Shown here piece after piece: positions 37,515-55,867 of a stretch of DNA of 64,000 nucleotides. A program made the position numbers and the translations under genes. The notes beneath the pieces are model-generated. The model did no database searches and was not told where the DNA came from. It saw only the letters and a program-made list of their open reading frames with translations. The stretch is from a virus. The number at the start of each line of letters is the position of its first letter. Within the stretch, counting starts at the first letter, position 1. The stretch lies in IMG/VR virus record IMGVR_UViG_3300025014_000002; one strand, given 5' to 3'.

Positions 37515-37526
37515 AATCCTGCAGTA

Positions 37527-38640: not shown

Positions 38641-38650
38641 AATATATACA

Positions 38651-38802: not shown

Positions 38803-38902
38803 CTCAAAACTCATTTTGTGAAATTTAATTTTACCTCCAGTTCCACAAAGTCATTCTAGTTATTTTAAGATCACCATATAAATTATATTAAAGTTATATG
38901 AC
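38651..38902 (-). mobile_element. Non-autonomous TnpB-family mini-element (left end plus omega-RNA scaffold, no ORF)
   Basis: 38651-38802 matches 52378-52529 at 137/152; 38863-38909 matches 51216-51262 at 40/47. Confidence 0.85.
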
Positions 38903-38910
38903 TATTTATG
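38903..38910 (-). promoter_or_regulatory. Late promoter motif CATAAATA immediately upstream of the mini-element
   Basis: Same motif as the other late promoters. Confidence 0.65.
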
Positions 38911-38921
38911 GTAATTTAAAT

Positions 38922-39455
38922 TTAGTAGTAATATTTTTCTAATCCATAAGGAAAAAATTTGTCATCAGATTGGGCTAAAAAATCTTTTAACCTGTAGCCG
39001 AAAACTTGGTTGTAATAAAATAGTGGGTTTAAAGTTGGTTGACGTTTTTCAACAAATACAAGATCGTCAGTCCCGTTGTATTTGATTATAAGAAGCATTT
39101 CTTTTTTGCTATTTCTAGCGTCCTGAGTTGCTTGCTTAATCCACGTGTCCCATTGTGCGACTTTACCCTTCACAATGGCAGCGAACGTGGGGCCTGCTTT
39201 ATAGTTTTTACACTCAACGGAGTATTTGAATCCATCTGGGCAAATCAAATCTCCAAAGTTAGCGTGGTTTAAATCATGTGTCACGACTCGGCGTTGATTT
39301 GAACCACCAAAAAATGAGCCAGAATCTGTATTCCTACGGAAAGCGGATGAAATTCCAGTTACCTTTTCGAAGCGAGATGATAGCAAGTTAGATATCTTGC
39401 GCTCATACGAGGAACCTTTACTTTTGCCGTTGACTTTAGGAGTTACTGTGCTCAT
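38922..39455 (-). CDS. Holliday junction resolvase-like PD-(D/E)XK nuclease
   Basis: KSKGSSYERKIS...GDLICPDGFKYSVECKNYK motif, next to recombination genes. Confidence 0.7.
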   Translation of the reverse strand: MSTVTPKVNGKSKGSSYERKISNLLSSRFEKVTGISSAFRRNTDSGSFFGGSNQRRVVTHDLNHANFGDLICPDGFKYSVECKNYKAGPTFAAIVKGKVAQWDTWIKQATQDARNSKKEMLLIIKYNGTDDLVFVEKRQPTLNPLFYYNQVFGYRLKDFLAQSDDKFFPYGLEKYYY

Positions 39456-39473
39456 CAGTATCTATTTAGTCTT

Positions 39474-39659
39474 TTACTTTGCAGACATCAGATTTTTCTT
39501 GTCCTGAATCTCACCGCGTCGCACTTTTGTGAGCTTGCCCAAGTCACCAAGAGCAGCCCTAGCTCTGGCGGCAGCCGCTTTCACGCCCTTTTCTTCAAAC
39601 TTAGCTGATTCTTCAAGATACGCTGCGTAAGCAGTTGCGATTTGTTCGTGTGTTGTCAT
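39474..39659 (-). CDS. Small basic DNA-binding protein, Hc1-like
   Basis: KFEEKGVKAAAARARAALGDLGKLTKVRRGEI resembles short Hc1-family proteins. Confidence 0.5.
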   Translation of the reverse strand: MTTHEQIATAYAAYLEESAKFEEKGVKAAAARARAALGDLGKLTKVRRGEIQDKKNLMSAK

Positions 39660-39716
39660 AATAAATACCCTTTGTTAAACTGATTTATCCTCGATTTAAT
39701 CGAGTGAAATATTTTT

Positions 39717-41516
39717 TCACTCAACTACTACTGCTTCTTCATTAGCATCTTCTGTGTCGTCAGTAATATACTGTGTAAACCCACCCTCTTTCTGGACCTT
39801 CAAAATGTTCCCGACACGACTGATAAGCTCATCCTTGTGTGAGATCAGCCAAATACTCTTCTGTGAATCTCGGGCCATCCGCTTGAGAACGCCCATTACG
39901 CTTTCAACGCCACTTGAGTCCAGCCCGTTGTCAATCATCTCATCAATGAACAGAAGGTTGACTGCCTCGTGTGCTGATTCCCATACGTCGCGGAACGACA
40001 GGCTCAACGATAAGATGACCCGTGTCATCTCACCGCGGCTAAGGTTGTAAAAATCAAGCTCACGGCCAAACTCTTCAATGCTGACTGTAAGATCACTCTG
40101 GAACACTACCGTGTGTGGTAGCCCTATTTTTTCAAGGTAGTAAGAGAGCCGTGCGTTGAGGTAGGTAAGATTCTGATCGATAATCCGTTTGCGGATGAAA
40201 CTGTCCTTGTTAGTGAGGAGCTTGAGCAGGAACTCTTGATGATCCTTGAGCTTTGAAGCAGCGTCAATGGTCGTATAGTCCACGACGATGAGTGCGGCCT
40301 CCTCCATCTCCTGGATCTGCTCACTGTATGGATTGACCTCACCAAGTTTGCCCTCGAGCTGCTGTGTGAGGTGCTGAACTGAGCTCTTATGATTATGAGC
40401 GTCAACGATTTTTTTGTAAAACGTGCTCTTTGCAGTCCCAACGCTCCCAATTGCCGCAATCTGCTCGTTTATCTTGACTTTTGCTTCCAAAAGTTCCACG
40501 ATCTGAGCCTCAGCCTCTTCCAACACCGCGATCTTACGCTTCAAGATCTCCTCTTGCTTGCCATCGTGCAAATCCTGCCCGCAAGCGTGGCACTTGTGAT
40601 CCTTGAGTGCTGTGATTTCTGCTGTAGTAGTGTCTCGTGTTCGCTCTTCGCGGGTAAGCTCTGTGGCAGTGCGAGTCAACGCTTTCTTATGATCGTCAAG
40701 TTTTTTCACTGCCAACGCTATCTCATCGTTAGCAGCGTGTGTATCAATCTCAGCATCAATGTCTACCTTGAGCAATTCTTCCAAAGAACTTGACAAATCA
40801 GCGATATCGACCTCATGTTTCGCTTCCCACTGTGCGCTACGCTTCTTGAGAGCGGCGACCTGCTCTTCTATTTTCTTGTTTGCCTCAACACACGCTTTGA
40901 TACGCTGTTCTTCTGCTGAAATCGTGTCCTTGGTAGCGCGAATCTGCTCTTTAAGAGCATCCGACTTCTCACTCAGCACTGTTATGCCAAGCAACTGCTC
41001 AATGATTGTGCGTTGATCGTTAGCTCTGAGGCTCAAGAACGGTTCAGTGTAAGTGTTCAACGCGACCACATTCTTGAACATATCATGCGACATACCTAAG
41101 ATACGATCAATCTCAGCCTGGGTCTCACGAGAATCACCTTGAGCATCATCATCCTGCGCTGCAAACGCGACATCTCCCTTGTAAAACTTCAAGACATTGG
41201 GTTTACGCCCGCGTTCAATCCTGTAAGTGACCCCATCCTTAACAAAGTCAATCGTAGCAAGCATGCCCTTAGCATTAGTCCGGTTGATCAAGTTGTCACG
41301 ACGAATGTCGTTTATTGCCTGCCCAAACAAGGCATAACTCAAAGCGTTAACGATAACAGACTTACCAGCCCCATTACGTGACCCAGCATCATCACCGCCT
41401 AAGTCTAAGTTTTCACCCAACACCAAAGTTAAATCTTTTCTATCAAAGTTTATAGCCTGGGTATTATTCCCAACTGACATGAAATTTTTTGTAGTGAGAT
41501 TTTTTATCGTAAACAA
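39717..41516 (-). CDS. gp46: Recombination endonuclease ATPase subunit (gp46/Rad50/SbcC-like)
   Basis: Walker A NGAGKS, zinc hook CHAC, signature LSRGE, Walker B LLFIDE. Confidence 0.92.
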   Translation of the reverse strand: MFTIKNLTTKNFMSVGNNTQAINFDRKDLTLVLGENLDLGGDDAGSRNGAGKSVIVNALSYALFGQAINDIRRDNLINRTNAKGMLATIDFVKDGVTYRIERGRKPNVLKFYKGDVAFAAQDDDAQGDSRETQAEIDRILGMSHDMFKNVVALNTYTEPFLSLRANDQRTIIEQLLGITVLSEKSDALKEQIRATKDTISAEEQRIKACVEANKKIEEQVAALKKRSAQWEAKHEVDIADLSSSLEELLKVDIDAEIDTHAANDEIALAVKKLDDHKKALTRTATELTREERTRDTTTAEITALKDHKCHACGQDLHDGKQEEILKRKIAVLEEAEAQIVELLEAKVKINEQIAAIGSVGTAKSTFYKKIVDAHNHKSSVQHLTQQLEGKLGEVNPYSEQIQEMEEAALIVVDYTTIDAASKLKDHQEFLLKLLTNKDSFIRKRIIDQNLTYLNARLSYYLEKIGLPHTVVFQSDLTVSIEEFGRELDFYNLSRGEMTRVILSLSLSFRDVWESAHEAVNLLFIDEMIDNGLDSSGVESVMGVLKRMARDSQKSIWLISHKDELISRVGNILKVQKEGGFTQYITDDTEDANEEAVVVE

Positions 41517-41518
41517 TT

Positions 41519-42535
41519 TTAGAGATTCCTGTAAATATCAATCAACACTTTTGGATCGTAATGATCGCTTTTAATCTGCGAAATTTCAGCGTTAACAATC
41601 TGATCCACTGATAAAAACTGAATACTACCTGGCGTTACAACATCTGAGGACACATCTTTTTTCACTGGAATCATCGTAAGCTCTCGCAGTTTATAAGTGT
41701 CAACAAAAGTTTCCTTCACAAAAGTAGCCTCTTCATAACTAATGTCAATGTCCAAGTTAACACGGACATGCATTTTTGGCTTCAAAATAGTTTCAGCCTT
41801 GTTCAAGAGGTGGCTAAGTTGGTAGATACGATATCTGGGCTGATCTGGCCACGAAAAATATTCTGGCTCCCCACCCCACTCTAACACCATACACCCACGC
41901 TCATCGTCTCCGACATCACTGTAGTTATGCGGGAAACAGTTGCCAATGTAGTTTATATTCTTTCCATTTTGCCGTTTATGAAAGTGCCCGCTAAACACTT
42001 GCTCGACACCTTTGAAATGATCCTGCTGTATTTCACCATGATCCGGCATCTGAATTTGCGCATTCATATAGAAATGCGGCAACTCAAAGTGTCCAAAACA
42101 ATATTTGGCATTGATCTTTTCAATTTTCTTATGTTCGTCTTTAACTAGCCACGGAACAATGCTTACATCACTGTCTTTAAAAAACTCATTGACAATGGTA
42201 ATGTTTGGGATATGCCTAGCCCACTCGGCTGATTGAATATCGCGACGATCTCTGAAAAATTGATCATGGTTTCCTGGTATAAAAAACACTTGAGAGAAAT
42301 TTTCTCCGAGAAGTTCTAATATCTTTACAGCATAGGTCATAGTTCGGATATTCATACTTGCACGGTTGTTATGATAATCGCCAAGGAAGAAACAAGTCTC
42401 ACAGTTTTCTTTTTTTGCGGTCTCGATAAACCAATTTACAAATTCAAGACAGTCATTATTGTGGGCTTCACTATTTGATTTCAAACCTAGATGCAAATCA
42501 GTAAAGACAATCGCTTTTTTAAATAAATTACTCAT
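41519..42535 (-). CDS. gp47: Recombination endonuclease nuclease subunit (gp47/Mre11/SbcD-like)
   Basis: Metallophosphoesterase motifs FTDLHLG, FLGDYHN, IPGNHD, FGHFE, SGHFH. Confidence 0.92.
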   Translation of the reverse strand: MSNLFKKAIVFTDLHLGLKSNSEAHNNDCLEFVNWFIETAKKENCETCFFLGDYHNNRASMNIRTMTYAVKILELLGENFSQVFFIPGNHDQFFRDRRDIQSAEWARHIPNITIVNEFFKDSDVSIVPWLVKDEHKKIEKINAKYCFGHFELPHFYMNAQIQMPDHGEIQQDHFKGVEQVFSGHFHKRQNGKNINYIGNCFPHNYSDVGDDERGCMVLEWGGEPEYFSWPDQPRYRIYQLSHLLNKAETILKPKMHVRVNLDIDISYEEATFVKETFVDTYKLRELTMIPVKKDVSSDVVTPGSIQFLSVDQIVNAEISQIKSDHYDPKVLIDIYRNL

Positions 42536-42543
42536 ACGCTATT

Positions 42544-44301
42544 TTAAACTCGTTGGTTAGTGAAAGCAAATACAATTTGCCCAGAATCAAACGCACGATA
42601 GAATCCATTTTGATTCATATTTTCTACTTCAGATTTTTGCGGATCAAAAACAAGAAGTTTGTCTTTTAACTTATGTTTTTGCCAAGCATTTCTTGATCCC
42701 ACTAGCCTACCTGCTTTTGTATACACATATCCTGGAGCAGTAGTATGAGTTGCAGTAAATCCGCAAGCAGAATACACACGGCCAGAACTAAATCTGCGGT
42801 GACAATAACTGATCATTGTTTCATCATCTTTCATTTGTGCTGAAATAAAGTGTTTGATCAATTTTGATGCCCCACCAATAACAGCATATTTTTTCTTAGC
42901 AGATAACCTAAGTAACTCGTAAGATGCTTTTTTTGTGAATCTACTTTTACCAAAGGTGGCGACCATAAATAATTCTCCATTCTCATTTATTAGCCCGTAG
43001 TTCACGCTACTGACACAGTCGCCTTGAATATGATTTTGATCCAGAAACTCTCTTTTGCTTTCACTGTTGAGGCTGATTAGTGACAACTTTCTTGCGAAAA
43101 CTTTGGTTGACAATTTCATCAGGTGTTCAATCCTGCTGATGATAATATCCCATTTGTCATTCAACTCCCAATCCCAAAACTGCATTAGCGTAATTCCAGC
43201 TTTTTCAGAAGCAATGATTTTGTTTAAATGATAACTTTGACTTTTGACAAACTGCTCTGAATGCCAATATCCCCCATTCACTTCAATTCCTAACTTAAAA
43301 TCTGGAAAATACACATCAACTTCTTTTGGAGATATAACACTTCTATTATGGAGTTCAACTGAAATATTTTTTGATTCAAAGTAACTTTTGAACTTACGTT
43401 CCAGTTCGGTTGCGGTATGAGCTACAATGGGCAAACTATGCTTATGAAAGTATTTGTTTAGATTACTACTGCTTACACCTAGCTCAGACGCGAGCTCGCC
43501 GATTGTCTTCACTAGATTTGATGATGCAAGCCAGTCTGCGTTATTTAATTTTTCTAAAACAGATGGGGCATAATAGTTACTTTTCCTGGTATCTCCAGCC
43601 TTAGCTGCGAGGTTTGCATTTTGTAGTGGAACTTTAACTCCATATCTACTTAAATTAGTGGCAGCAACTTTATCACGAATTTCAGGGCAGCTCAACACAT
43701 TTTCCTTGCCATATTTTGTCAAGTTAGCTGCTTTGATTTTCTCTTTAACATCTGCTCTTTGAAAATTTGAAGCAACACCATATTTTTCAATAGTAATTTG
43801 CTCGATTCTTTCTTTAACATTCTTGCTCTGTGCTGGATATGCTACTCCAAACTTTTTAACATTTGAAGAAATAACACGGTCATGAAACTCTTGTGTTTGA
43901 CTATAGTGAGTGGTCCCAAATTTTCTTAAAGACGCTTCAATGATTTTCTCACTATGATCTCCACGCTGCGATGCCCACTCTACCCCATATTTTTTTAAGT
44001 TAGTAGCTTTATTTTTTTCAACCGAGTGTAATCCAGCACATTTTGAACAGCAAAACTTACGATATGCTCTATCGTCTGGATTCCATTTTAACTTATTTCC
44101 GCAAATACACAGTGGTATTTCACCAATATCATTGCTAGCATGAAAAATAAGTTGTCTGGGATTCAAAATTCCATAGTCATAATAATTTTTAAAGATAGAA
44201 TCCCATAACTCTGAATCTATTAGATGCTTTAGGGATAAGTATTTTCTATCTTGAAAGTCTTTAATCGTAATCGCCAGTTGAGTCATAGCTTTGATTGCCA
44301 C
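42544..44301 (-). CDS. Hef-like PD-(D/E)XK homing endonuclease with KYG repeats and GNAT/Mom-like C-terminus
   Basis: Six NLxKYGV-type repeats; EVDVYFPDFKLGIEVNGGYWHS; start overlaps the 3' end of gp55. Confidence 0.7.
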   Translation of the reverse strand: MAIKAMTQLAITIKDFQDRKYLSLKHLIDSELWDSIFKNYYDYGILNPRQLIFHASNDIGEIPLCICGNKLKWNPDDRAYRKFCCSKCAGLHSVEKNKATNLKKYGVEWASQRGDHSEKIIEASLRKFGTTHYSQTQEFHDRVISSNVKKFGVAYPAQSKNVKERIEQITIEKYGVASNFQRADVKEKIKAANLTKYGKENVLSCPEIRDKVAATNLSRYGVKVPLQNANLAAKAGDTRKSNYYAPSVLEKLNNADWLASSNLVKTIGELASELGVSSSNLNKYFHKHSLPIVAHTATELERKFKSYFESKNISVELHNRSVISPKEVDVYFPDFKLGIEVNGGYWHSEQFVKSQSYHLNKIIASEKAGITLMQFWDWELNDKWDIIISRIEHLMKLSTKVFARKLSLISLNSESKREFLDQNHIQGDCVSSVNYGLINENGELFMVATFGKSRFTKKASYELLRLSAKKKYAVIGGASKLIKHFISAQMKDDETMISYCHRRFSSGRVYSACGFTATHTTAPGYVYTKAGRLVGSRNAWQKHKLKDKLLVFDPQKSEVENMNQNGFYRAFDSGQIVFAFTNQRV

Positions 44302-45280
44302 CCATCCCTTGCCGAGTATAAGATGGGTTTAGTGAGTTCATTTCCAAAATATCGTCTCTAATATTTTGATTCTGCTTTTCTATATTTAGTATCCTTGTAA
44401 AGCTATTAGTGATAGCTGATGTGTAATACGCAAATGGATTCTGCGATTTTGATTCATCAAACTGTAGCCCAACCTGTGTAAGTTGAAGGATAGCCTGCGC
44501 TTGCATTTCGTCACGGTATGAGTAACCGCGCCAGTTTGATCTTGTAACATACCTCTCGCATAGCTTCATATACATAGTGGCGAGTTTGTTGGTAATCTGC
44601 CCATGCGTCCTGCAAAACTCTCCAGTATTGATGTCACCTTGCCAATGACTTTTACCAACTAACTGCGGAACCAAGTTGTCGTCTAGCTTGTAATGCTGAA
44701 ATGATGGAAAGTTTACCTTGACATACTTTTTCGGTGTTGGAGTAGCTAATGCTGCTGGCAAATCAACATCCAGCTCGCCCAATCCGTCGTCAAAAATTTC
44801 TGGATCATCAATAACTGATTCGACCTTTCCTTTGACCTTGTTACCCTTTATGATTTTCGGAACAGTAGGAGCAGCAAGTGGTATATGATTCCATGTCATC
44901 AGCCGAAAAATAACATCTTGCGGTTTAATACTGTCGACAGATACAACAGCCAGCTCGTTTCTAGGTTTTTTACCTGCCATAAGCTCAAGTTCTTGAGATA
45001 TTCGAGTAAGACGAGTTGCCCTAGCAGCAAGTGCTTCTGGCGGAAAAGTAGCAGTAACTGATTCTGACTCGCCTGTGTCCTCATCAACAATAATGCGAGT
45101 TTCAGTTTTTTCTTTTAACAATCCTGGAATGTCAGCTAAATCACGTATAATAATATCGTAATCAGCGTATTCGGGTTTAGTAAAGATACAGTATGTGGTT
45201 TTGCTTTTGTGAATCTCTTTAAGAATGTCTTTGTTGTTCAGATAGTTTATTTTTTTAGTTGGTACGATTAGTGATGACAT
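44261..45280 (-). CDS. gp55: Late transcription sigma factor (gp55-like)
   Basis: NYLNNKDILKEI, NWRGYSYRDEM, FDESKSQNPFAYYT...NSFTRILNIEK motifs. Confidence 0.85.
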   Translation of the reverse strand: MSSLIVPTKKINYLNNKDILKEIHKSKTTYCIFTKPEYADYDIIIRDLADIPGLLKEKTETRIIVDEDTGESESVTATFPPEALAARATRLTRISQELELMAGKKPRNELAVVSVDSIKPQDVIFRLMTWNHIPLAAPTVPKIIKGNKVKGKVESVIDDPEIFDDGLGELDVDLPAALATPTPKKYVKVNFPSFQHYKLDDNLVPQLVGKSHWQGDINTGEFCRTHGQITNKLATMYMKLCERYVTRSNWRGYSYRDEMQAQAILQLTQVGLQFDESKSQNPFAYYTSAITNSFTRILNIEKQNQNIRDDILEMNSLNPSYTRQGMGGNQSYDSTGDYD

Positions 45281-45317
45281 GAGACACGGTCCTTTAATAT
45301 ACTACTATTTTAACAAA

Positions 45318-45325
45318 GATAAATA
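45318..45325 (+). promoter_or_regulatory. Late promoter motif GATAAATA heading the baseplate operon
   Basis: In the divergent intergenic region between gp55 and the 45387 gene. Confidence 0.65.
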
Positions 45326-45386
45326 TCATATAGCAAGCGAAATGATATGACAACTACCACCTTTTTACTAACTTTGACGAATAACT

Positions 45387-46517
45387 ATGGCAAATGAAGA
45401 AACATCAGCTATAGCTAGCCCAAACTCTCCAGCAGATCCGTTTATTGCTGAAGATCCATATGAGGTGGCAAAGGGTAGCGGATACTCTGATGCAAGGGTG
45501 TTAACCGACGACCAAAAAACTTGGATAGGTGGTGCTGATCCGAATGATCCTTATATCATGGCTAGGATGGAGGGAAGCTCTTTCACTTCAAGTGACAGTC
45601 TTAAAAATATGGGATCTAGCTTAGGCGGAGGTATAACCACGCTTGGAGCAAATATTAAAAATGGTATTTCAGATTCTGTCGCCAACATTGGTAATGGGAT
45701 ATCAAACGTTAAAAATAAAGTAGCAGCACTATTTACTCCAGGAAGCCCTGCCGCAGCGAACGCAGCGCAATCGTTAATCAAAGGATCTGGGGTAAGCGGC
45801 GCACTTTCTGCAGTATCAAACATCTCTGCTGGAAGGATACAAGCAGGCGGCGTTCCAATTCCGTCTACACTATCGGCCCCGTCCGACGCAGTAGCTAAGT
45901 GGTCTAACCCAGATGGAAGTACCAGTGGCTCTGCCGGCAGCAACTCTGATGATTGGAGATTAAAAGTCTCGCTGTTTGATCCGTCATTATTCAGTGGCGG
46001 GGTACTTATACCACTTGAAAAAACGGGCGGTTTTATATTTCCTGTAACTCCACAAATTAATATAACTCACACTGCCAAATATTCATCACTATCACCTACC
46101 CATAGCAACTATGCTATGCAGTTTTTTGAAAGTAGTGAAGTAGCTGCAATACAAATAACTGGTGAGTTTCCAGTTCAAAGCACTGAAGACGGGGCATACC
46201 TACTAGCTGGGTTATACTTGTTTAGGGCAGCTACTAAAATGTTTTGGGGAAACGATGCTTTGGCCGGAACTCCGCCCCCAATGTTAAAACTATCTGGGTA
46301 TGGGGCTGAATATTTTCCAAACGTGCCTTGTGTATTGACCTCAATGCAACACACTATGCCCGAGGACAAAGATTACATTAATGTTGACGGAACTTGGATT
46401 CCAACGCTAAGTACACTAACTATTACACTGCAACCACTATACAGCAGAAATGCAATGACTAGTTTTGATTTAAAGCAATTTGCTGCTGGCGGGTTACTTG
46501 GGAAAGGATTCATTTAA
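45387..46517 (+). CDS. Baseplate/tail-tube initiator-like protein
   Basis: GFIFPVTPQI...HSNY...ITGEF...GTPPPMLKLSGYG...PCVLTS resembles contractile-tail tube-initiator proteins; first gene of the baseplate operon. Confidence 0.55.
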   Translation: MANEETSAIASPNSPADPFIAEDPYEVAKGSGYSDARVLTDDQKTWIGGADPNDPYIMARMEGSSFTSSDSLKNMGSSLGGGITTLGANIKNGISDSVANIGNGISNVKNKVAALFTPGSPAAANAAQSLIKGSGVSGALSAVSNISAGRIQAGGVPIPSTLSAPSDAVAKWSNPDGSTSGSAGSNSDDWRLKVSLFDPSLFSGGVLIPLEKTGGFIFPVTPQINITHTAKYSSLSPTHSNYAMQFFESSEVAAIQITGEFPVQSTEDGAYLLAGLYLFRAATKMFWGNDALAGTPPPMLKLSGYGAEYFPNVPCVLTSMQHTMPEDKDYINVDGTWIPTLSTLTITLQPLYSRNAMTSFDLKQFAAGGLLGKGFI

Positions 46518-46822
46518 TGGCTACCGTGGCATATTCCAAATTTAGTCCATACGCAAAAACAAAATTGTTTGGGCAATTTCTAGACGTAATGGTCCCTAGA
46601 AATATAACGCAACTAAAATCTGATAAATCCTACACGATTGCTAAAATATATGATTATCGTCCTGATTTACTTGCCTACGATTTATATGGTGATACTAGAT
46701 TGTGGTGGGTATTTGCAATGAGAAACCCAGATGTTCTTAAAGACCCGCTATTTGATTTTACTGTTGGTAATACTATAATTTTGCCAGATAAAGCTACTCT
46801 TTTCACTGATTTAGGAATTTAA
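46517..46822 (+). CDS. Baseplate wedge protein (gp53/LysM-like)
   Basis: YDYRPDLLAYDLYGDTRLWWVFAMRN motif. Confidence 0.75.
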   Translation: MATVAYSKFSPYAKTKLFGQFLDVMVPRNITQLKSDKSYTIAKIYDYRPDLLAYDLYGDTRLWWVFAMRNPDVLKDPLFDFTVGNTIILPDKATLFTDLGI

Positions 46823-46823
46823 T

Positions 46824-48770
46824 GTGGCTGATAGAAATGTTTTGCATGATTATGCTACCTACACTTACCGATTAAGTTTACACGCAATAAGTCCTTCTAA
46901 ATATAATGATTTAGTTGATTCACCAGATGGGTACAAACCCACTAATGTTTTAATTTCCAGTGGTGGTGCTCGTGGTAGCAGTTTCCCGCGTGACCCAAAT
47001 TTCCATGAGGATTTTTACTTTGACAAACTTTCAATAGAAACTGTAACTGGGATGAGTGCTACTACTAGAAATACTAATGCTATCACTCTTAATTTTACAA
47101 TTATTGAACCATATGGGCTTACCTTACTCAATCGTATTATTGATGTAGCAAGCAGCCTTGGTGCTGAGAATTTTAAAACAATGCCGTTTATACTGCAAAT
47201 TGATTTTTTTGGTTCTAAAGATGACGGGATTCCGACACAAATAACTGATATAACTAAAAGGATACCGATACGGTTTCTTGAATTTAAAATGAAGGTTACT
47301 AATAAAGGTGGGGTTTATGAAATATCTGCAACACCGTATGGCCACACTGCTTTTGAGGAGACTGCGGTCACTACTCCCGTTAAACTTGAAGTAATGGCCA
47401 AAACAATTGGTGAATTTTTTAATGCCCATGCTCACGATCCTGGCAATTTAGCTCAAGTTGGTGAAGTAGTTTCTAAACGTGTTGCTTTGCAAAATGCAGT
47501 CACTAGCGCTCAACGATCTCAACGATCAACTCTCAATGATTCTGCTGCATCAGCAAGAGTAGAAAAATCTAAAAAAGATTTAGCTGCTTTTGTTGGAGTA
47601 ACTCCGGCACCAGTTCAAATCACTAGTTATGCGGAAGCCGTAAATAAGTGGAATGATACCTTGCAGTTAGAAGGATTAATTGAGGTAGCGGATGTTATAT
47701 CTTTTGAAGTTGATAAATCTTTCAAAGATTCAACTTTCCCTAAAGCAGCTGAAATTGCTAAAGATGCCATCGAAATGAAGCAAACTACTGATAAACAAAC
47801 TGGGGTAGCAACAGCAAGGCATACAGCCGAAGGTGATGAAGTTCTTATTCCAATTAATCAAGGTACATCGGTAACTGAGGTAATTGGTATTGCAATGCGA
47901 AACAGTAAGTACATACGCGATCAAGTTTCTGAAGAGCCGACAAATAAGACTGGGTTTATAGATTGGTTCAAGATTATTCCAAAAGTTAAATTGCGCGCTT
48001 ACGATAAAATTCGCAAAACTTTTGCTAAAGAGTACATTTATGTTATAAAAAAATTTAAAGCGCCAAACACTGAAAACAGATTTGCTGCAAAAACAACTCC
48101 AACCAAATCAGTTAAAGATTACAACTACATTTTTACTGGTAAAAATGATGATGTAATAGATTTAGACATGACGTTTGATACAACTTATTTTACTGTTGAC
48201 TCGGCTAAAAATACAAATTTGAATAATGTGAATGGAACACCAACCTCAGATAAGAAAGGGACCGACGAAAAGTCAAAATCCGCGAATTATAAAGATAGTA
48301 AGCCTGGGCAAAGCAATGAAAATGATGCTCTCAAGCCACAGCTTCATTACTCTGCCAACTCAGCGTCCACCGCGTCAAACGAGTTAAACTCGACTGAAAG
48401 AAAGGTTGGTGAACTTCAAGCTCAGATGTTATCTAGTGCCGCGGGTGATATGCTTAGTGTTGATTTAAAAATAATAGGCGACCCTGCGTTCATTAAGCAA
48501 GATGATATTTTACATACATTAGCATCTGGAGAAACTACTACTGACGGTGGAATCGTCACTGACAATGAAGAAATTTATTGTAACTTAACTTTTTTAACCC
48601 CGAGCGATTATGATGATTCAACCGGGTTAGAAGATCCAAAACAATCGAAATATACTTCAAGTGTATTTTCAGGGTATTATAAAGTTCTTACCGTTACAAG
48701 CGAATTTCAACGTGGACAGTTTACTCAAACTCTGCATTTAGTTAGATCACCAATACAACCAGAAAAATAA
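46824..48770 (+). CDS. Baseplate hub protein (gp27-like)
   Basis: FTIIEPYG, LKIIGDPAFIKQ, FSGYYKVLTVTSEFQRGQFTQTL; lies between gp53-like and gp5-like genes. Confidence 0.6.
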   Translation: MADRNVLHDYATYTYRLSLHAISPSKYNDLVDSPDGYKPTNVLISSGGARGSSFPRDPNFHEDFYFDKLSIETVTGMSATTRNTNAITLNFTIIEPYGLTLLNRIIDVASSLGAENFKTMPFILQIDFFGSKDDGIPTQITDITKRIPIRFLEFKMKVTNKGGVYEISATPYGHTAFEETAVTTPVKLEVMAKTIGEFFNAHAHDPGNLAQVGEVVSKRVALQNAVTSAQRSQRSTLNDSAASARVEKSKKDLAAFVGVTPAPVQITSYAEAVNKWNDTLQLEGLIEVADVISFEVDKSFKDSTFPKAAEIAKDAIEMKQTTDKQTGVATARHTAEGDEVLIPINQGTSVTEVIGIAMRNSKYIRDQVSEEPTNKTGFIDWFKIIPKVKLRAYDKIRKTFAKEYIYVIKKFKAPNTENRFAAKTTPTKSVKDYNYIFTGKNDDVIDLDMTFDTTYFTVDSAKNTNLNNVNGTPTSDKKGTDEKSKSANYKDSKPGQSNENDALKPQLHYSANSASTASNELNSTERKVGELQAQMLSSAAGDMLSVDLKIIGDPAFIKQDDILHTLASGETTTDGGIVTDNEEIYCNLTFLTPSDYDDSTGLEDPKQSKYTSSVFSGYYKVLTVTSEFQRGQFTQTLHLVRSPIQPEK

Positions 48771-48773
48771 TTT

Positions 48774-50834
48774 ATGGCTTCAAATAATAGAGTAGGAACT
48801 AAAACACCAAAATGGGTCAATCCAGCGTCAATTCCTGGAACACTCTTAAGTCCCGGACCGTATATTGGGGTCGTTAAAAATAATGTTGACGCTAATAGGT
48901 CTGGCAGAATAGAGGTATTCATTGAAGAATTTGGTGGCCTCGAAGGGCAGCCGTCACACTGGATAACAGTTCAGTATGCAAGTCCCTACTTGGGAGCATC
49001 GCGCTGGCCTGGCGTCAGGTCTGCTAAAAACAAAGAAAACACGTTCAAGACAGTAAACCATACTTATGGAATGTGGTTTACTCCACCTGACATAGGAAAC
49101 TTTGTGCTAGTAACTTTCGTTGGTGGCAAAATTTCACGCGGGTTTTGGTTCGCTTGCGTAATGCCTGAGCTAACTCACTATGCTATTCCGGGTATTGCTG
49201 GATCTAACTTTTTAAAACTACCTGATGATGCAGCGTTGGCAGCGGCGGTAGATCAACCGCCATATCCTGTAGTAGAATATAACGACGCTAATGAAGGAAA
49301 TATTAGCAGAGAAAATGAGTTTCTAACTATCCCCAAACCAATACATGAGCCACAGTTCCTTCACCTTCTTAAAGAAGGATTGGAGAACGATAAAAAACGC
49401 GGTGTATTAACTAGCAGTTCGCAACGTGAAAGCCCAAGTAGGGTGTTTGGTATTAGCACGCCAGGCCGCGACGGACCAGATAAAGATAAAGACACTCAGG
49501 CTGTTGAAAACAGACTCGGTGGGCATACGTTTGTAATGGATGACGGAGATGAAAGCGACCAAAATGACCTAATACGGTTGAGAACGGCTGCCGGCCACCA
49601 GATTCTAATGAACGATAGTGAAAAAGTGATCTACATTAGCAACTCGTCGGGCACTGTATGGATGGAGTTCACTGATGACGGCAAGATTCATGTATTTTCA
49701 GAATCTGACGTAAATGTGCGGTCCAATGGAACTCTTAATCTTCATGCTGAAAAAGACATTCATATGCATGCTAAAGAGAATATTACGATGTGGGCTGGCA
49801 CTTCGATACATGAGCAAACAAAAGACTTTTCCATCAAAGGAACAACTACCTTGAAGATGTTTGGGCAAGAGACTGAGTTGTCTTCGGGTAGCACTTTAAA
49901 GTTACAATCAGCTACAACTGGATCTTGGGCCAATGGTGGGGACTTGATTCTTTCAACTGGTGGCAAAATTTATCTCAACACAATGCCCGCCCCTAGCGTT
50001 CCTACTCCGGGCAATATACCAATCAACACGTTTAAAGAAACAATTCCGACAAAACCCGCGCCGATTTACAAGTATAAAGTTAATTCATCAATAACTTCTA
50101 CTGTAGCTGAACTGACCGCGCATGAGCCATGGGTCAAACATGCCAGTGGTGGAAGTAGTGCTGCCAGTGGTGGAAGTAGTGCTGCCAGTGGTGGAAGTAG
50201 TGCTGCCAGTGGTGGAGCACCTGGTGCTGGCCCTGCTGGTGCTAGCGGGCAAGGGGTACTTAAACCAACTATTACTAACGACGATATTTTAAAGCAAACA
50301 CCAGGAGTTGATAGTATTGGTAAGATGAACCCGTCTGACGTTGCGGCGTTAAAAGCACAGTTAGCTAAAACAGAGTCGGGTGGTAAGTATGATGCAGAAA
50401 ATCAGTTTGGTTATGTTGGAAAATACCAGTTTGGATCAGCCGCGCTGGCAGGTCAAGGATATATGAAGCCAGGGGTTAAACAAAGTGTTGCCAACATGAA
50501 TAACCCAGACAACTGGACTGGTAAAGATGGTATTCATAGTATAGCAGATTTTAAAGCAAATCAAGCGGTTCAAGAAAAAGTTATGGATACTAACTTAGAA
50601 AACAACTATAAACAACTTTTGAAAAGTAAAACTGTTACCTCTGATTCTAGTCCAGCAGACATTGCTGGTAAATTGTCAGTTGCCCACTTACTTGGTGCTG
50701 GTGGTGCAAGCAAATGGGCCAAGGGCGGTGGTGGGCAAGATGCCAATGGTACGACGGGCGATAAATACTATAACAATGGTAAATATGCAGTAGTGACGGC
50801 CGCTGCTAAAAACAATCCACCAACATCAGGATAG
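48774..50834 (+). CDS. gp5: Baseplate central spike (gp5-like) with C-terminal lysozyme-like domain
   Basis: OB-fold start GPYIGVVKNNVDANRSGRIEV; GHTFVMDD/GHQILMND beta-helix repeats; TESGGKYDAENQFGYVGKYQFG muramidase-like motif. Confidence 0.75.
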   Translation: MASNNRVGTKTPKWVNPASIPGTLLSPGPYIGVVKNNVDANRSGRIEVFIEEFGGLEGQPSHWITVQYASPYLGASRWPGVRSAKNKENTFKTVNHTYGMWFTPPDIGNFVLVTFVGGKISRGFWFACVMPELTHYAIPGIAGSNFLKLPDDAALAAAVDQPPYPVVEYNDANEGNISRENEFLTIPKPIHEPQFLHLLKEGLENDKKRGVLTSSSQRESPSRVFGISTPGRDGPDKDKDTQAVENRLGGHTFVMDDGDESDQNDLIRLRTAAGHQILMNDSEKVIYISNSSGTVWMEFTDDGKIHVFSESDVNVRSNGTLNLHAEKDIHMHAKENITMWAGTSIHEQTKDFSIKGTTTLKMFGQETELSSGSTLKLQSATTGSWANGGDLILSTGGKIYLNTMPAPSVPTPGNIPINTFKETIPTKPAPIYKYKVNSSITSTVAELTAHEPWVKHASGGSSAASGGSSAASGGSSAASGGAPGAGPAGASGQGVLKPTITNDDILKQTPGVDSIGKMNPSDVAALKAQLAKTESGGKYDAENQFGYVGKYQFGSAALAGQGYMKPGVKQSVANMNNPDNWTGKDGIHSIADFKANQAVQEKVMDTNLENNYKQLLKSKTVTSDSSPADIAGKLSVAHLLGAGGASKWAKGGGGQDANGTTGDKYYNNGKYAVVTAAAKNNPPTSG
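50141..50216. repeat. 21 bp tandem repeat x3.6 (ASGGSSA linker)
   Basis: TGCCAGTGGTGGAAGTAGTGC repeated exactly three times plus a partial copy. Confidence 0.95.
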
Positions 50835-50837
50835 CAT

Positions 50838-51194
50838 ATGGCACTCTATAATGGGTTTTCGACAGTTAACCGCAGCAAGAAGTTTGTAATACACGACTTT
50901 GAGCTGGCGAAGCAGGATTTAATGAATCACCTTTTTATTAAAAAAGGTGAAAAAATCATGGACCCTAACTTTGGAACCATAATATGGGGTGTGTTGTTTG
51001 ACCAGCTAACGGACGAACTCAGAGACGCGATATCAAAAGACGTGACTAAAATAGTTAACTCTGACCCTAGACTCGTCGCAAACAATATTACCCTAACTGA
51101 ATACCAACACGGAATTCAAGTGAAAATAGAGCTAACCTTTGTTGAAACTGATCAGAAGGATGTTCTCTACGTCAACTTTGCACAGTCAAAGTAA
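50838..51194 (+). CDS. gp25: Baseplate wedge protein (gp25-like)
   Basis: KQDLMNHLFIKKGEKIMDPNFGTIIW...DPRL motif. Confidence 0.85.
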   Translation: MALYNGFSTVNRSKKFVIHDFELAKQDLMNHLFIKKGEKIMDPNFGTIIWGVLFDQLTDELRDAISKDVTKIVNSDPRLVANNITLTEYQHGIQVKIELTFVETDQKDVLYVNFAQSK

Positions 51195-51214
51195 TATACT
51201 AATATTATCGCAAC

Positions 51215-51222
51215 GATAAATA
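51215..51222 (+). promoter_or_regulatory. Late promoter motif GATAAATA immediately upstream of the TnpB element
   Basis: Same motif as the other late promoters. Confidence 0.65.
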
Positions 51223-51289
51223 ACTATATAACTTCAATATAATTTATATAGTAAACTTAAAACATTAAATAAACTATATAATATAATTT

Positions 51290-52525
51290 ATGACTCAATT
51301 AGTTCTAAAAGCATTCAAATACCGAATCTATCCCACTAAGGAACAGACTAGTTTTCTAGACCGTAACTTTGGAGCGGTTAGATATATCTGGAACCAATTC
51401 GTTGCATCTTTCAATCATAATTTTATTGGTCCTTGTTTGCCTCAAGACGAAAAGTTCATTAAAGACCTACCCGGAAAAGAATTCTTGACTGAAGTAATTA
51501 GTTACGGTCTACAACAGAAAAGAATGGACTGGGTTGAATTCAAGAAGCAATTCTTTTCTAAAAAGAGAGCAGTCAAATTAGGTAGACCAAAGTTCAAGAA
51601 AAAAGGAGTTTCTAATGATTCATTTAAAATTCCAGGTCAATGTCTAAAATTTAATTCCTGTATAAATTTTGAGACTTCTAGAATCAAATTACCAAAGATG
51701 TCGCCTATTAAACTAGTTATCGATAGAAAATTTTCTGGATTGTTGAAATCGGTAACAGTATCAAAGAATAAAGCCAACCAATATTTTGTTTCGGTTCTAG
51801 TTGAAGAACCTATAGAGCTGAAACAAAATACCGGTAGGAGTATTGGTATTGATCTGGGTTTAAAAGATTTACTTATCTGTTCAACAGGCATGAAAATCAG
51901 TAATCCTAGATGGTTTCGTAAAACCCAAACGAAACTAAAAATAACTCAAAGAGCATTTAGTAAGAAAGTTAAAGATTCATCCAGATACAAACAGATGAAA
52001 CTTAAAGTGGCTAGACTTTATCTAAAAGTAACTAACCAAAGAAAGTTTATTTATGATAATCTATCAACTTGGTTAGTAAATAACTATGATACCATAATTA
52101 TGGAATCACTTAAAGTCAAGAATATGATTAAGAATAGAAAATTATCTAAGTCAATTCAAGATGCTTCTTGGTCTACTTTAATCGGAATGGTCAGCTATAA
52201 ATCTAACTGGTACGGTAAAACGTTCCATCAAATAGATACTTGGTTTCCTTCTTCTAAAACTTGTTCTTGTTGTGGTCATAAACTAGAATCTTTAGATCTC
52301 TCTATAAGAGAATGGACGTGTCCTAGTTGCAATACTAAACATGATCGAGATCTAAATGCTTCAGTAAACATACTCTATAAAGGTCTAGATGATCTTTATA
52401 GTTTAACATCGGCCGAATTAGCCGATTACAGATGTCGAGAGTCAGTAAATCCTAAAGTAGAAATACCAAAGGTAGATTCATTGAAACGTCTAGTCAGTTT
52501 TATAGATTTTTATAAAACGGCATAA
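51290..52525 (+). CDS. tnpB: RNA-guided endonuclease TnpB, catalytic residues apparently intact
   Basis: N-terminal KAFKYRIYPT..Q; RuvC-I GIDLGLK; RuvC-II IIMESLKV; zinc finger CSCCG/CPSC; RuvC-III HDRDLNASVNI. Confidence 0.92.
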   Translation: MTQLVLKAFKYRIYPTKEQTSFLDRNFGAVRYIWNQFVASFNHNFIGPCLPQDEKFIKDLPGKEFLTEVISYGLQQKRMDWVEFKKQFFSKKRAVKLGRPKFKKKGVSNDSFKIPGQCLKFNSCINFETSRIKLPKMSPIKLVIDRKFSGLLKSVTVSKNKANQYFVSVLVEEPIELKQNTGRSIGIDLGLKDLLICSTGMKISNPRWFRKTQTKLKITQRAFSKKVKDSSRYKQMKLKVARLYLKVTNQRKFIYDNLSTWLVNNYDTIIMESLKVKNMIKNRKLSKSIQDASWSTLIGMVSYKSNWYGKTFHQIDTWFPSSKTCSCCGHKLESLDLSIREWTCPSCNTKHDRDLNASVNILYKGLDDLYSLTSAELADYRCRESVNPKVEIPKVDSLKRLVSFIDFYKTA

Positions 52526-52529
52526 TTAT
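52378..52529 (+). ncRNA. omega-RNA scaffold overlapping the tnpB 3' end; predicted guide 52530-52549
   Basis: Expected location for a TnpB reRNA; hairpins ATCGGC/GCCGAT and GTTTTATA/TATAAAAC; conserved in the orphan copy. Confidence 0.7.
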
Positions 52530-52549
52530 CATAGTCAAGGATCAAAGCG

Positions 52550-55500
52550 ATGTCTTCATCATCACGTCAGCACAGTTTATTAGCCGCAGAGGATTGGAAA
52601 AAAATATACCAGACCTTCCGCGAAGCAGATTTTCAATCTTACGATTTCGAGACTCTGCGCAAGAGTATGATCGACTATTTGAAACTGTATTATCCAGAGG
52701 ATTTTAACGATTTCATTGAATCAAGTGAATACATTGCGCTGATTGATTTGATAGCATTTTTGGGGCAAAGTTTAGCATTCAGATCAGACTTAAACGCAAG
52801 GGAGAGTTTCATTGACACGGCAGAACGTCGTGACAGTATTTTGAAACTGGCTAGACTGATTAACTACAGTCCGAAACGAAGCATACCTGCGTCAGGATTT
52901 CTTAAGATTGAATCCATTGCTACTAGCGAAAAGTTAACTGATTCCACTGGAGTAAGTATTACTGGGCTTCCTATCACTTGGAACGACACTACAAATAACA
53001 ACTGGTTAGAGCAGTTTACGATCATTATTAACGCTGCTCTAATAGATAATCAAACCATTGGTAAATCAGGGAATTCACAGTTAATCAATGGAATAATGAA
53101 TTCTGAATATACCGTTAACTTAACAACAAATACTCAGCCAACATTCGCGTTTAACGCCATTGTCAATGGAGCTCAAACACCATTTGAGATCGTCAGTGTC
53201 ACCTCCGTTGGGCAGCAATACATTTATGAAGTACCACCTATAGCAAATAACAGATTTAATCTGTTATATCGCAACGATAACCAAGGCAACGGTAGCATAA
53301 ACACTGGATTCTTCCTATATTTTAAGCAAGGAGCATTGAGCACACTAGATTTCAACCTTGAAGAATCTTTGGCTAACCGTGTATTAACAGTTGGGTATAA
53401 TGGAATCAACAACTCAGATGTATGGCTATACTCATTAGATGTAAATGGTGCAGTTGATGTTAAATGGACACCTGTACCAACGGTTGCTGGCATCAATGTA
53501 ATATATAACAAATCCGTAGATAAAAATCTATTCCAAATCAATACTACTGTTAACGATAACATTGACTTAGTGTTTGGAGATGGAGCATTTTCGAATATAC
53601 CTGTTGGAAACTTTAGATTGTATTTTAGAACAGGGAACGCCCAGGCATACAAAATTTTACCAACTGACATTCAAAATACTTCATTCTCGATTCCCTATGT
53701 GTCACGAGCTGGAAATGTCGAGACCTTGTCGATCTTCGCATCATTGAACTACACCGTGTCTAATGCTACTGCTAGCGAAACATCTGAAGAGATTAGGCAA
53801 AAAGCGCCACAACAATACTACACTCAAGGTAGAATGGTCACGGGTGAGGATTACAATATTGTACCATACACAAACTATGCTAATATATCTAAAGTAAAAG
53901 CAGTTAACAGATCAAGTAGTGGGGTAAGCAGATTCATTGATGTAAACGATAGCAGCGGGAAATATTCAAGTACAAACATCTTTGCTCAGGATGGTGTTCT
54001 GTACAAAACTGCTCAAGACTACGAACTAAAACTGTCTTTCTTGAATACGAACACTATCGGGCAAATCATCAGTGACACTGTGTCAAATATTTTGAACACA
54101 CGCGAACTACTTCATCGCTACTACGATGAAGTAACTGCCTATCAATATCCGAACGCAGAATGGGTAATGAGTTCATTAAATATTGGCGGTAGCACTGGGT
54201 ATTTTAAAAATATGTTGACTGGGCAAATACTTCAACTTGGAAATATTACCAGCACTGCTGGGTCACATATTAAAGTCGGGGCATTGATTAAATTCACTGC
54301 TGGAACAGGAAAATACTTTAATGCGCAAAACGTAATCCTTCGGGGTTCCCCAAGATTTGATGGAGACAAGTTATACATATATGCTTCAGTAGTTGCTGTG
54401 CTTGGTGACGGCACCAATGGTGGTATTGGTACTATGTTAAATGGCCAAGGGCCAGTGACATTAAGTATCAAAGTTCCGACGGGTGCGGCTGTTCATTCCA
54501 TTATACCAAGATATAGCAACACATTAACTACATTGACTATTCAAGAAATGGTTACTGCTGTTGCTGTGAAATCTAACTTTTATCTGAACTATAATGCGGA
54601 GCAGAGTATTTGGGAGTTAACCATTGGCAATGTATATGACAACAACTGGATTATTAGATTTGAAAACGTTGCTAACGTAGGGTATTCGGTATACTGGCGC
54701 GGACTATCATATATATTTGAAAGCAAGAAGGAAACGAAGTTTTATTACGACAATAAAGTCAAAGTATATGACAGCAAAACTAATACTGTTATTCAAGACA
54801 ATATTAAGTTTTTAAAAGTAAATGCACAACCACTGACTTCGTTGCCAATGGGGTTGGATTACCGCATGAACATACTGTCTAATATTACAGAGGCAGATGG
54901 GTATGTAAATCAAAATAAAGTAACCCTGACTTTTACTGATACCAATGCTGATGGAATTCCTGATGATCCATACATTTACAAAAGTTTAGTAGACAGCAGC
55001 AATATTGTATTTTTCAAGAAAATTATTAGTTATGATAGTTTTATTCAATGGGAGTCATTCGACTCTTCTTTAGTTGATACATTATATACTAGTGTTTTAG
55101 AGATACCTATTTCTCAATACAGCGAGGGGCAAGTATTTTATATTCAATCAACCACACCAGAATTTTATGTGTTAATGAATCTTCAAGGCGCTTACTCATT
55201 GGTAAGATCTACTGATTACGTGGCTAAGAACGGTAGAGACAACCTGTATTTCCAATATACGCATAACAGCCCTGGAAATAATAGAATAGATCCAAGCCCA
55301 AATAATATCATTGATATTTATGTGTTAACTAAGGAGTATGCGGAAGCGTATAATCTTTGGATTAAAGATACGACTGGAAAAATTGAAGAGCCATTGCCCC
55401 CAACTACTGAGGAGCTATCGTTAGAATACACTGGCTTACAAAAATTAAAGGCAATAAGCGATACAATAGTGTTAAGCTCTGCAAAGTTTAAGCCCTTATT

Positions 55501-55867
55501 TGGACCCACTGCCGAGTTGTCGTTACAAGCGACATTTAAAGTAGTTAAAAACGCGTCAGTAAACATAAGTGATAATGAAATTAAATCGCGTGTGATAGCA
55601 GCAGTGAACAGCTACTTTGATACAGCAAATTGGGATTTTGGAGAGTCGTTCTACTTTAGTGAGCTAAGTGCGTATCTTCACTCGACATTAAGTCCAGCCG
55701 CCTCATCTATTATTATCGTGCCTGTTGATGCAAAATCACTTTTTGGTAACCTGTATCAGATCAATGCTGAAGCTAACGAGATCTTAACTAGCTCTGCTAC
55801 AGTCGCTAACGTTGAGATTATCAGCGCAATCACTGCAGCAACTCTTAACGCGAACGTAGCAGGGTAA
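52550..55867 (+). CDS. gp6: Baseplate wedge protein (gp6-like)
   Basis: YDFETLRKSMIDYLKLYYPEDFNDFIESSE, FIDTAERRDSILKLARLINY, RMVTGEDYN motifs. Confidence 0.85.
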   Translation: MSSSSRQHSLLAAEDWKKIYQTFREADFQSYDFETLRKSMIDYLKLYYPEDFNDFIESSEYIALIDLIAFLGQSLAFRSDLNARESFIDTAERRDSILKLARLINYSPKRSIPASGFLKIESIATSEKLTDSTGVSITGLPITWNDTTNNNWLEQFTIIINAALIDNQTIGKSGNSQLINGIMNSEYTVNLTTNTQPTFAFNAIVNGAQTPFEIVSVTSVGQQYIYEVPPIANNRFNLLYRNDNQGNGSINTGFFLYFKQGALSTLDFNLEESLANRVLTVGYNGINNSDVWLYSLDVNGAVDVKWTPVPTVAGINVIYNKSVDKNLFQINTTVNDNIDLVFGDGAFSNIPVGNFRLYFRTGNAQAYKILPTDIQNTSFSIPYVSRAGNVETLSIFASLNYTVSNATASETSEEIRQKAPQQYYTQGRMVTGEDYNIVPYTNYANISKVKAVNRSSSGVSRFIDVNDSSGKYSSTNIFAQDGVLYKTAQDYELKLSFLNTNTIGQIISDTVSNILNTRELLHRYYDEVTAYQYPNAEWVMSSLNIGGSTGYFKNMLTGQILQLGNITSTAGSHIKVGALIKFTAGTGKYFNAQNVILRGSPRFDGDKLYIYASVVAVLGDGTNGGIGTMLNGQGPVTLSIKVPTGAAVHSIIPRYSNTLTTLTIQEMVTAVAVKSNFYLNYNAEQSIWELTIGNVYDNNWIIRFENVANVGYSVYWRGLSYIFESKKETKFYYDNKVKVYDSKTNTVIQDNIKFLKVNAQPLTSLPMGLDYRMNILSNITEADGYVNQNKVTLTFTDTNADGIPDDPYIYKSLVDSSNIVFFKKIISYDSFIQWESFDSSLVDTLYTSVLEIPISQYSEGQVFYIQSTTPEFYVLMNLQGAYSLVRSTDYVAKNGRDNLYFQYTHNSPGNNRIDPSPNNIIDIYVLTKEYAEAYNLWIKDTTGKIEEPLPPTTEELSLEYTGLQKLKAISDTIVLSSAKFKPLFGPTAELSLQATFKVVKNASVNISDNEIKSRVIAAVNSYFDTANWDFGESFYFSELSAYLHSTLSPAASSIIIVPVDAKSLFGNLYQINAEANEILTSSATVANVEIISAITAATLNANVAG

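Follow-up and report, generated by a model that had tools for sequence, protein, structure and literature searches.

A probable IS607-type TnpB transposon without its transposase gene and outer left end at a late promoter of a T4-like phage

Transposons of the IS607 family (CboIStron and the ISCbt type, ISXfa1, Helicobacter pylori IS607) consist of a left end, a serine-recombinase gene (tnpA), a tnpB gene and a right end that specifies a guide RNA, and they show neither inverted repeats nor a target duplication beyond a short matching core; they are mobile by way of a circular double-stranded intermediate, and derivatives that have lost TnpA are common among them. In ISDra2, of the IS200/IS605 family, TnpB (PDB 8H1J, 8EXA) is accompanied by a Y1 HUH transposase and the transposon-adjacent motif (TAM) is TTGAT. 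Two further kinds of selfish DNA offer comparisons, namely PATEs and similar miniature TnpB derivatives resembling MITEs (miniature inverted-repeat transposable elements), and the Seg and Mob homing endonucleases of T-even phages. Here we compare with these systems a segment (positions 51216-52529, plus strand) of a 64,000-nt stretch of DNA, hereafter the window, from the IMG/VR virus record IMGVR_UViG_3300025014_000002. The segment lies between the baseplate genes gp25 and gp6 of a T4-like phage, and we consider it likely to be a copy of an IS607-type transposon from which both tnpA and the outer left end have been lost. An earlier sequence-only reading of this DNA had described a TnpB element of the IS200/IS605 family with a miniature second copy in the window; the element itself held up, as the intact TnpB open reading frame (ORF), the guide-RNA region and the mini copy are all real, while the family assignment most likely did not.

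To delineate the family, we took the terminal 28-31 nt of the right end as an exact query against public collections, which returned 10 viral and 26 metagenome loci representing about 21 distinct right flanks, with more added by a left-end scan; the insertions compared stem from contigs of aquifer phages. These loci include copies of about 1.48 kb with intact tnpB (L054, L059 and L076; TnpB 87-89% identical to that of the window), deletion derivatives of 467-469 nt (L001, L008), minis of about 280-300 nt at many loci, and a solo right end of about 110 nt (L002:11878-11988) that lies between two genes and holds the scaffold without a left end. The solo right-end fragment is present in six loci (L002, L059, L061, L062, L067, L070). 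One more distant relative, found in L005 and L007, is a complete element with the gene order typical of IS607; its TnpB is 64% identical to the window's, and the final 45 nt of its right end are the same.

It is this complete relative that identifies the transposase of the family. In the minis and the 1.48-kb copies, an ATG within the 3' arm of the left-end hairpin opens a reading frame (MVKLKKFADD...MTLWNW) that agrees with the N-terminal part of TnpA from L007, the product of the gene ahead of tnpB in L005 and L007. The TnpA of L005/L007, 197 aa long, carries the Pfam Resolvase domain and scores 188 bits against the NF033518 IS607-family transposase equivalog (cutoff 110). These serine-recombinase remnants, together with the intact IS607 transposase of the relative, are what speaks against the IS200/IS605 assignment. 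The remnant is preserved to different degrees: 46 codons, corresponding to the helix-turn-helix (HTH) part, in the 1.48-kb copies (frameshifted in L054 and L076), about 20 codons in minis (about 68 nt, 38810-38877, in the window's mini), and in the window's full copy a decayed start (51248-51263) that reads only ATA-GTAAACTTAAAAC. We considered whether the 46-codon, HTH-only remnant might be a retained regulator; given the frameshifts in L054 and L076, it is probably decaying instead. More distant IS607-like elements in viral contigs (L082, L083, L084) have TnpA proteins 63-72% identical to that of L007, with tnpB broken in L083 and L084, and in L082 and L083 the sequence CTAAATAA or TATAAATA stands just upstream of tnpA and/or tnpB.

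No transposase gene was found in the window itself, as the sequence-only reading had stated: tblastn with IS607 TnpA gave no match, and Pfam scans, which took in 10 of the small or unassigned ORFs and not every ORF of the window, revealed no transposase. Nor did we see a Y1 (HUH) gene beside the element copies that we read in related loci, although neither these loci nor the window were searched with a Y1 model; the sole gene remnant adjoining the left end belongs to a serine recombinase.

The nuclease gene of the element, tnpB (51290-52525, plus strand), encodes 411 aa and appears to be an intact RNA-guided nuclease of the ISDra2-like type. The ORF contains the Pfam domains HTH_OrfB_IS605, OrfB_IS605 and Cas12f1-like_TNB and scores 291 bits with the NCBIfam model guided_TnpB (cutoff 100). 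It aligns with the ISDra2 TnpB structure (PDB 8H1J) over residues 6-365 with an E value of 2.6e-61; as in ISDra2, the three RuvC motifs (D/E/D) are represented, here by GIDLG, ESLK and HDRD, and a zinc ribbon (CSCC...CPSC) is kept. The ratio of nonsynonymous to synonymous substitutions (dN/dS) is 0.09-0.11 against L059 and L076 (dS about 0.8). TnpB is thus under purifying selection, despite the fact that no copy of the window lineage has a working tnpA. The element therefore appears to combine an ISDra2-like nuclease with a serine recombinase, which sets it apart from IS607 elements with their usual IS607 TnpB group, and from ISDra2 with its Y1 enzyme.

Downstream, the right end (52375-52529, plus strand) corresponds to the guide-RNA (omegaRNA) scaffold. 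It overlaps the 3' end of tnpB, ends in ...CATAATTAT and is near-identical in about 21 insertions. The consensus fold has four helices, in which seven pairs stay paired despite changes on both sides. As in ISDra2, the scaffold is about 150 nt long, the flanking DNA next to it provides the guide, and the TAM is expected to equal the target motif. Unlike in described IS607 elements, the guide RNA is not RAGATH-18, since an Rfam scan of positions 36000-53000 returned no match, RAGATH-18 included. Likeness among the copies stops at 52529, and the predicted guide of the full copy (52530-52549, plus strand) comprises the next 20 nt, part of the gp6 leader including its ribosome-binding site.

Next, we defined the insertion site by means of empty alleles. 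Near and distant DNA searches of GenBank phages revealed no close relative of the region, and the empty alleles were therefore taken from metagenomes. In L011 and L012, whose gp25 genes are 90% identical to that of the window, the uninterrupted gp25-gp6 region reads ...GGATAAATA-CTATAT-CATAGTCAAGG...ATG(gp6). The sequencing runs that contain the window sequence are aquifer metagenomes, and their contigs provided two more joints across the missing element: one from 51154 to 52527 with 118 other letters between, which is of the L011 type and occurs in three runs, and one from 51222 to 52527 with CTA between, in which a window-type left flank passes into the same empty sequence. Empty alleles between gp25 and gp6, whose recovery the sequence-only reading had proposed as a check, are thus available, and they co-occur with occupied alleles in the same aquifer samples. 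At both joints, six nucleotides, CTATAT, separate the ATAAATA of the promoter from what comes after the right end in the occupied allele, so that the full element sits 6 nt past the gp6 promoter. Excision at the simplest junction, GATAAATA|CATAGTC, had been postulated; the natural alleles read GATAAATA-CTATAT-CATAGTC instead (L011/L012, and the aquifer joint with CTA).

The left boundary of the full copy requires a comparison with the other copies. At 11 distinct left flanks a further conserved stretch of about 22-25 nt precedes ATAAATA, whose sequence is TTACTACTAAATTTAAATTACC in the majority of copies and (AGT)GACTAAATTTTAATTACC in those of the L001/L008 lineage, and likeness among the copies stops 23-25 nt outside ATAAATA. 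The motif, in the context CC-ATAAATA, accordingly lies about 23-25 nt inside the left end of canonical copies, and the string ATAAATA-ACTATATAA also occurs between tnpA and tnpB in L005 and L007. Since ATAAATA is internal at 11 left flanks and in L005/L007, it is a signal of the element, and we regard it as the element's own late-promoter-like motif rather than as the target. For the full copy of the window, we considered whether the 21 nt before ATAAATA (51195-51215, plus strand) might be a diverged left end, a possibility that we rejected: they can be aligned with both extremities of the native intergenic region of L011, which is longer, and not with the canonical left end, and one aquifer contig covers 51195..51215, continues to 51222 and then passes into the empty allele. 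These 21 nt are therefore native gp25-gp6 intergenic DNA, that is, phage flank, and the full copy is without the outer 23-25 nt of the family's left end.

The most likely history, as we reconstruct it, begins with the element entering 6 nt past the late promoter of gp6, at ...ATAAATACTATAT|CATAGTC; a deletion of about 30 nt would then have removed the outer left end, its two endpoints being the ATAAATA-CTATAT of the promoter and the almost identical ATAAATA-ACTATAT within the element. The present ATAAATA (51216-51222, plus strand), which corresponds to GATAAATA in the empty allele, would thus be a hybrid of the gp6 late promoter and the internal, tnpA-promoter-like motif, and would mark the point at which the outer left end was lost. 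Immediately inside it lies the left-end hairpin (51223-51252, plus strand), formed by ACTATATAA, a loop and TTATATAGT, whose 3' arm carries the decayed tnpA start codon (ATA, 51248-51250). Stem variants among copies include ACTATA/TATAGT, GTCATA/TATGGT and CCATAT/ATATGG, a variation that appears compensatory, as the paired arms differ together between lineages. A second motif, TAAATA (51266-51271, plus strand), lies 18 nt upstream of the tnpB ATG and resembles a late promoter for this gene; the same position reads GATAAATAA in L054 and L076, ACAAATAA in L059 and AATAAATAA in L007.

These observations bear on the model put forward in the sequence-only reading, in which an IS200/IS605 element inserts directly 3' of ATAAATA, with this motif serving at once as TnpA target, TnpB TAM and core of the gp55 late promoter. 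Several features speak for that model: ATAAATA is indeed present at 51216-51222 and, on the minus strand, at 38903-38909; likeness between the two window copies starts there; native phage DNA extends left of the full copy as far as ATAAATA; TnpB is ISDra2-like; and there are hairpins near both ends. The internal position of the motif in 11 insertions and between the two genes of L007, which that reading itself had named as the observation that would overturn it, argues against the model, as do the CTATAT that separates ATAAATA from the guide-matching sequence in empty alleles, the serine-recombinase remnants with their intact relative, and several insertions inside ORFs with no promoter nearby (L063 and the window's mini). 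We consider the model very improbable. One part of it survives in altered form: CTATAT, not TAAATA, adjoins the guide match, so that the promoter core as such is not the predicted TAM, while the motif that we derive below overlaps a late-promoter core followed by T.

That motif was derived from 15 left flanks, of which eleven belong to canonical junctions and three to empty-type sites, the last being the L007 junction as inferred. The left boundary of L007 was set by analogy because, when we searched with the right flank of this autonomous element of L005/L007, occupied contigs alone were returned. All 15 flanks end in TAT, 12 of the 15 in ATAT, and 14 of the 15 have A at position -6, giving the consensus A-W-A-T-A-T; the three empty-type sites read CTATAT, AAGTAT and ACTTAT, with TAT alone invariant. 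At the other end, the element finishes in ...CATAATTAT (TTAT) at 20 of 21 sites, and the exceptional site finishes in TTAC followed by AATG, so that only a TA core fits both of its junctions. Empty alleles contain a single TAT, and there are no inverted repeats and no further target duplication, as in the IS607 family. From the junctions alone, we predict a core of TA or AT within the same TAT at both junctions. A serine recombinase that crosses over at a matching dinucleotide would produce this arrangement, and a short identical core at both junctions with no other duplication can be taken as the signature of IS607-type recombination. Described IS607 elements have a GG core and the TAMs TGGG or GGG (bioRxiv 10.1101/2023.11.20.567912; PMC10711439; PMC13565253). 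The G-rich target and TAM of those members are absent here, where the element ends in ...ATTAT and the flanks follow A-W-A-T-A-T, and the predicted TAT-ending motif likewise differs from the TTGAT of ISDra2. In one respect the resemblance to CboIStron is close: there the scaffold end differs slightly from the target (TCGG vs. TGGG), and here the last bases of the scaffold, AATTAT, differ at one position from the commonest target, AAATAT, a difference that would spare occupied sites from cutting by TnpB.

We next weighed whether the target motif is connected with phage promoters. TAAATA occurs no more than 60 nt upstream of 12 of the 34 window genes, compared with a mean of 2.9 and a maximum of 9 in 2000 composition shuffles, and a TAAATA-type motif stands about 20-30 nt upstream of gp6 in 11 related loci whose junction was read; we therefore accept TAAATA as the probable T4-type late-promoter core in this phage group. 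The sequence-only reading had counted its motif before at least 13 late genes; the exact ATAAATA, present 16 times in the window, precedes only about five genes, and it is the looser TAAATA that reaches 12 of 34. Such motifs before both genes of the element, and the setting in a lytic T4-like phage, distinguish this family from described IS607 elements.

It is possible, although we hold this tentatively, that recombinase and TnpB evolved A-W-A-T-A-T specificity to match the 3' part of late promoters and AT-rich pre-start spacers, so that new copies land in transcribed, tolerated, co-oriented sites before late genes. The positions of the copies agree with such adaptation: a co-oriented ORF start lies within -15 to +45 nt of the right end in 10 of 21 copies, several of which end exactly on a start codon, against 5.6% expected from motif occurrences in the window (P about 6e-8); the neighbour is co-oriented at every site where a neighbouring gene is clear; and five sites (gp6, L008, L059, L073 and L076) are at TAAATA or a few nucleotides past it. 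The TAAATA motifs before the element's own genes would themselves show adaptation to T4-like phages. The start-site bias could equally reflect selection against insertions in essential genes or in antisense orientation, and the fact that TAT alone is invariant, as the empty-type sites show, counts against such adaptation. An enrichment of family copies behind TAAATA, which the sequence-only reading had suggested looking for, is marginal: TAAATAT occurs in 4 of 15 left flanks (L008, L059, L073, L076) vs. 9.5% of A-W-A-T-A-T motifs in the window (P = 0.047), while other copies have no promoter nearby. Copies inside ORFs include that of L063 (2270-2600), a mini after codon 4 of a signal-peptide-bearing ORF that it probably inactivates or re-starts, and the window's own mini.

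The window's mini-element (38651-38931, minus strand) is a protein-less segment of 281 nt, with the left end at 38878-38931, a remnant of the tnpA start and HTH part at 38810-38877 and the scaffold at 38651-38805; its likeness to the full copy extends over about 50 nt at the left end and about 155 nt at the right end. It had been thought to start right after ATAAATA. Because the conserved stretch precedes ATAAATA in other copies, its left end is placed at about 38931, not 38909. There it runs into a PDDEXK-type nuclease gene (38922-39455, minus strand; Pfam PDDEXK_15), and translation across the junction shows that the mini provides the last three codons and the stop (TAC TAC TAA) of this gene. 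The same insertion is found in L006, L075 and L087, and the sequence just past the right end (38631-38650, minus strand) is its predicted guide. The relatives of the PDDEXK gene (55%) were too distant to yield an empty allele, and contigs of four aquifer runs contained no joint across the mini, an allele that may still exist. Like PATEs, the mini keeps both ends and the whole scaffold, encodes no protein and has counterparts at many sites; unlike them, it holds a serine-recombinase tnpA remnant, so it would derive from an IS607-type rather than an IS200/IS605 element. On its guide side, it adjoins a long ORF-free stretch (37300-38650) with no tRNAs and no Rfam matches, for which a structured RNA has been suggested.

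Copies of the family also appear to have recombined with one another. The L087 copy (850-1230) combines a PDDEXK left flank, as at the window's mini, with a right flank from a glycosyltransferase gene region, as in L059; the right flank is common to L053b and L071, which differ on the left, and the left flank is common to L008 and L051, which differ on the right. These chimeric flanks suggest that copies recombine, which seems to reshuffle the genomes of these phages. Summed contig depth over both window elements (38501-39001 and 51026-52528; four aquifer runs) is 5-10 times that of neighbouring phage genes, which fits a multi-copy family in the community. Empty alleles of the L059 and L076 sites, searched for with gapped flank patterns and by exact-protein look-up of downstream genes, were not found, all contigs being occupied. 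At L101 (1-1200), a second full-length TnpB gene, unrelated to that of the family and followed by a structured RNA of its own, directly adjoins a partial copy of the element (3' 330 nt); the pair sits upstream of the same 197-aa gene as L008 and represents a nested or adjacent insertion of two TnpB elements. Upstream of one mini copy, a related phage contig carries a cluster of seven tRNAs (L053:5042-5713, minus strand). The idea that the L053b and L071 copies stand in front of a tRNA was dropped, as ARAGORN found none downstream of them.

What the full copy may do for itself or its host is suggested by its guide. Of the 20 nt at 52530-52549, 17 agree with the empty allele of L011, among them an unbroken run of the first 11, and the mismatches fall at positions 12, 16 and 20; this match and the co-occurring alleles fit RNA-guided homing or exclusion between co-infecting phages. 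In the mechanism that we propose, tnpB and the guide RNA would be transcribed late, from the hybrid promoter, the internal TAAATA and read-through from gp25; TnpB with its guide would cut empty gp25-gp6 alleles of co-infecting relatives beside the TAT-ending motif, and recombinational repair would then copy the element in. The mini might provide a second guide in trans. The full copy itself should no longer be able to transpose, as without the outer left end it should not be a substrate for the transposase. The late expression and homing between phages envisaged in the sequence-only reading are hence plausible, and would depend on read-through and the TAAATA motifs that the element itself carries rather than on a promoter as target.

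Such a life cycle would resemble that of Seg and Mob, which are likewise selfish nuclease genes between conserved late genes, use phage promoters for their expression, and should cleave the allele without them in a co-infecting relative and spread by recombinational repair; recognition here would differ in relying on an RNA guide that the flank determines, and the element has transposition as a further means of multiplying. A variant in which mobility is irrelevant, and TnpB with its two guides is kept by the phage as an exclusion system against relatives lacking the insertions, seems to us rather unlikely. The purifying selection on TnpB in a lineage without working tnpA, in a copy without its outer left end, would be accounted for, as would the co-occurrence of matching empty alleles in the same samples. 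At the sequence level, however, this variant looks the same as selfish homing, and the three guide mismatches against the L011 allele count against it.

Our preferred reading, an IS607-type transposon copy that has lost tnpA and its outer left end, has to be set against several observations that weigh on the other side. The link to a serine recombinase consists of remnants and a 64%-identical relative, as no copy of the window lineage with intact tnpA was found, and window TnpB scores higher with the NCBIfam IS200_TnpB model (363 bits) than with IS607_TnpB (172 bits). The hairpins are subterminal at both ends, as in IS200/IS605 ends; the left one overlaps the tnpA start, about 32 nt from the true end. 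Elements of IS200/IS605 insert 3' of a fixed motif of 4-5 nt, and the flanks here contain a motif as well. A TA or AT core, as predicted from the junctions, would be unprecedented beside the GG of described IS607 elements. We recovered no gp6 site that is occupied by a copy with a complete left end, which leaves the deletion step a reconstruction, and the chimeric flanks suggest that the left and right flank of one copy need not stem from one insertion.

The surroundings of the full copy are those of a T4-like baseplate region. Its left neighbour is a gp25-like baseplate wedge gene (50838-51194, plus strand; Pfam GPW_gp25), with the 90%-identical orthologues of L011 and L012 flanking the empty site, and its right neighbour is a gp6-like baseplate gene (52550-55867, plus strand); gp25-gp6 synteny is seen in 37 related loci. 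The window, with a GC content of 41.5%, also encodes gp53, a T4 baseplate protein, a prohead protease and an HNH endonuclease, and ARAGORN found no tRNA in it. The HNH endonuclease, free-standing among head genes (23013-23693, minus strand) and with a NUMOD3 motif, is a second homing-type nuclease in the window, one that is protein-guided.

Taken together, the data portray a transposon family active in a lytic T4-like phage population, which has entered at least 21 sites, has given rise to deletion derivatives and guide-only minis, and includes copies with chimeric flanks; it bears the phage's own late-promoter motif and may act like the Seg and Mob homing endonucleases, but RNA-guided. As a wider and still speculative proposal, this could be an IS607-type lineage rebuilt for lytic T4-like phages, with its core changed from GG to TA or AT, a target and TAM overlapping the late promoter and pre-start spacer, late promoters of its own and an ISDra2-type TnpB, which after the loss of tnpA would have given rise to homing cassettes and guide-only minis that spread between co-infecting phages and reshuffle their genomes. 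If true, the pairing of an AT-only core with an ISDra2-like TnpB would show that serine recombinase and nuclease can change their target jointly, and the known compact nucleases would gain one whose predicted TAM is unusual. With defined occupied and empty gp25-gp6 alleles in hand, RNA-guided homing between co-infecting phages becomes testable.

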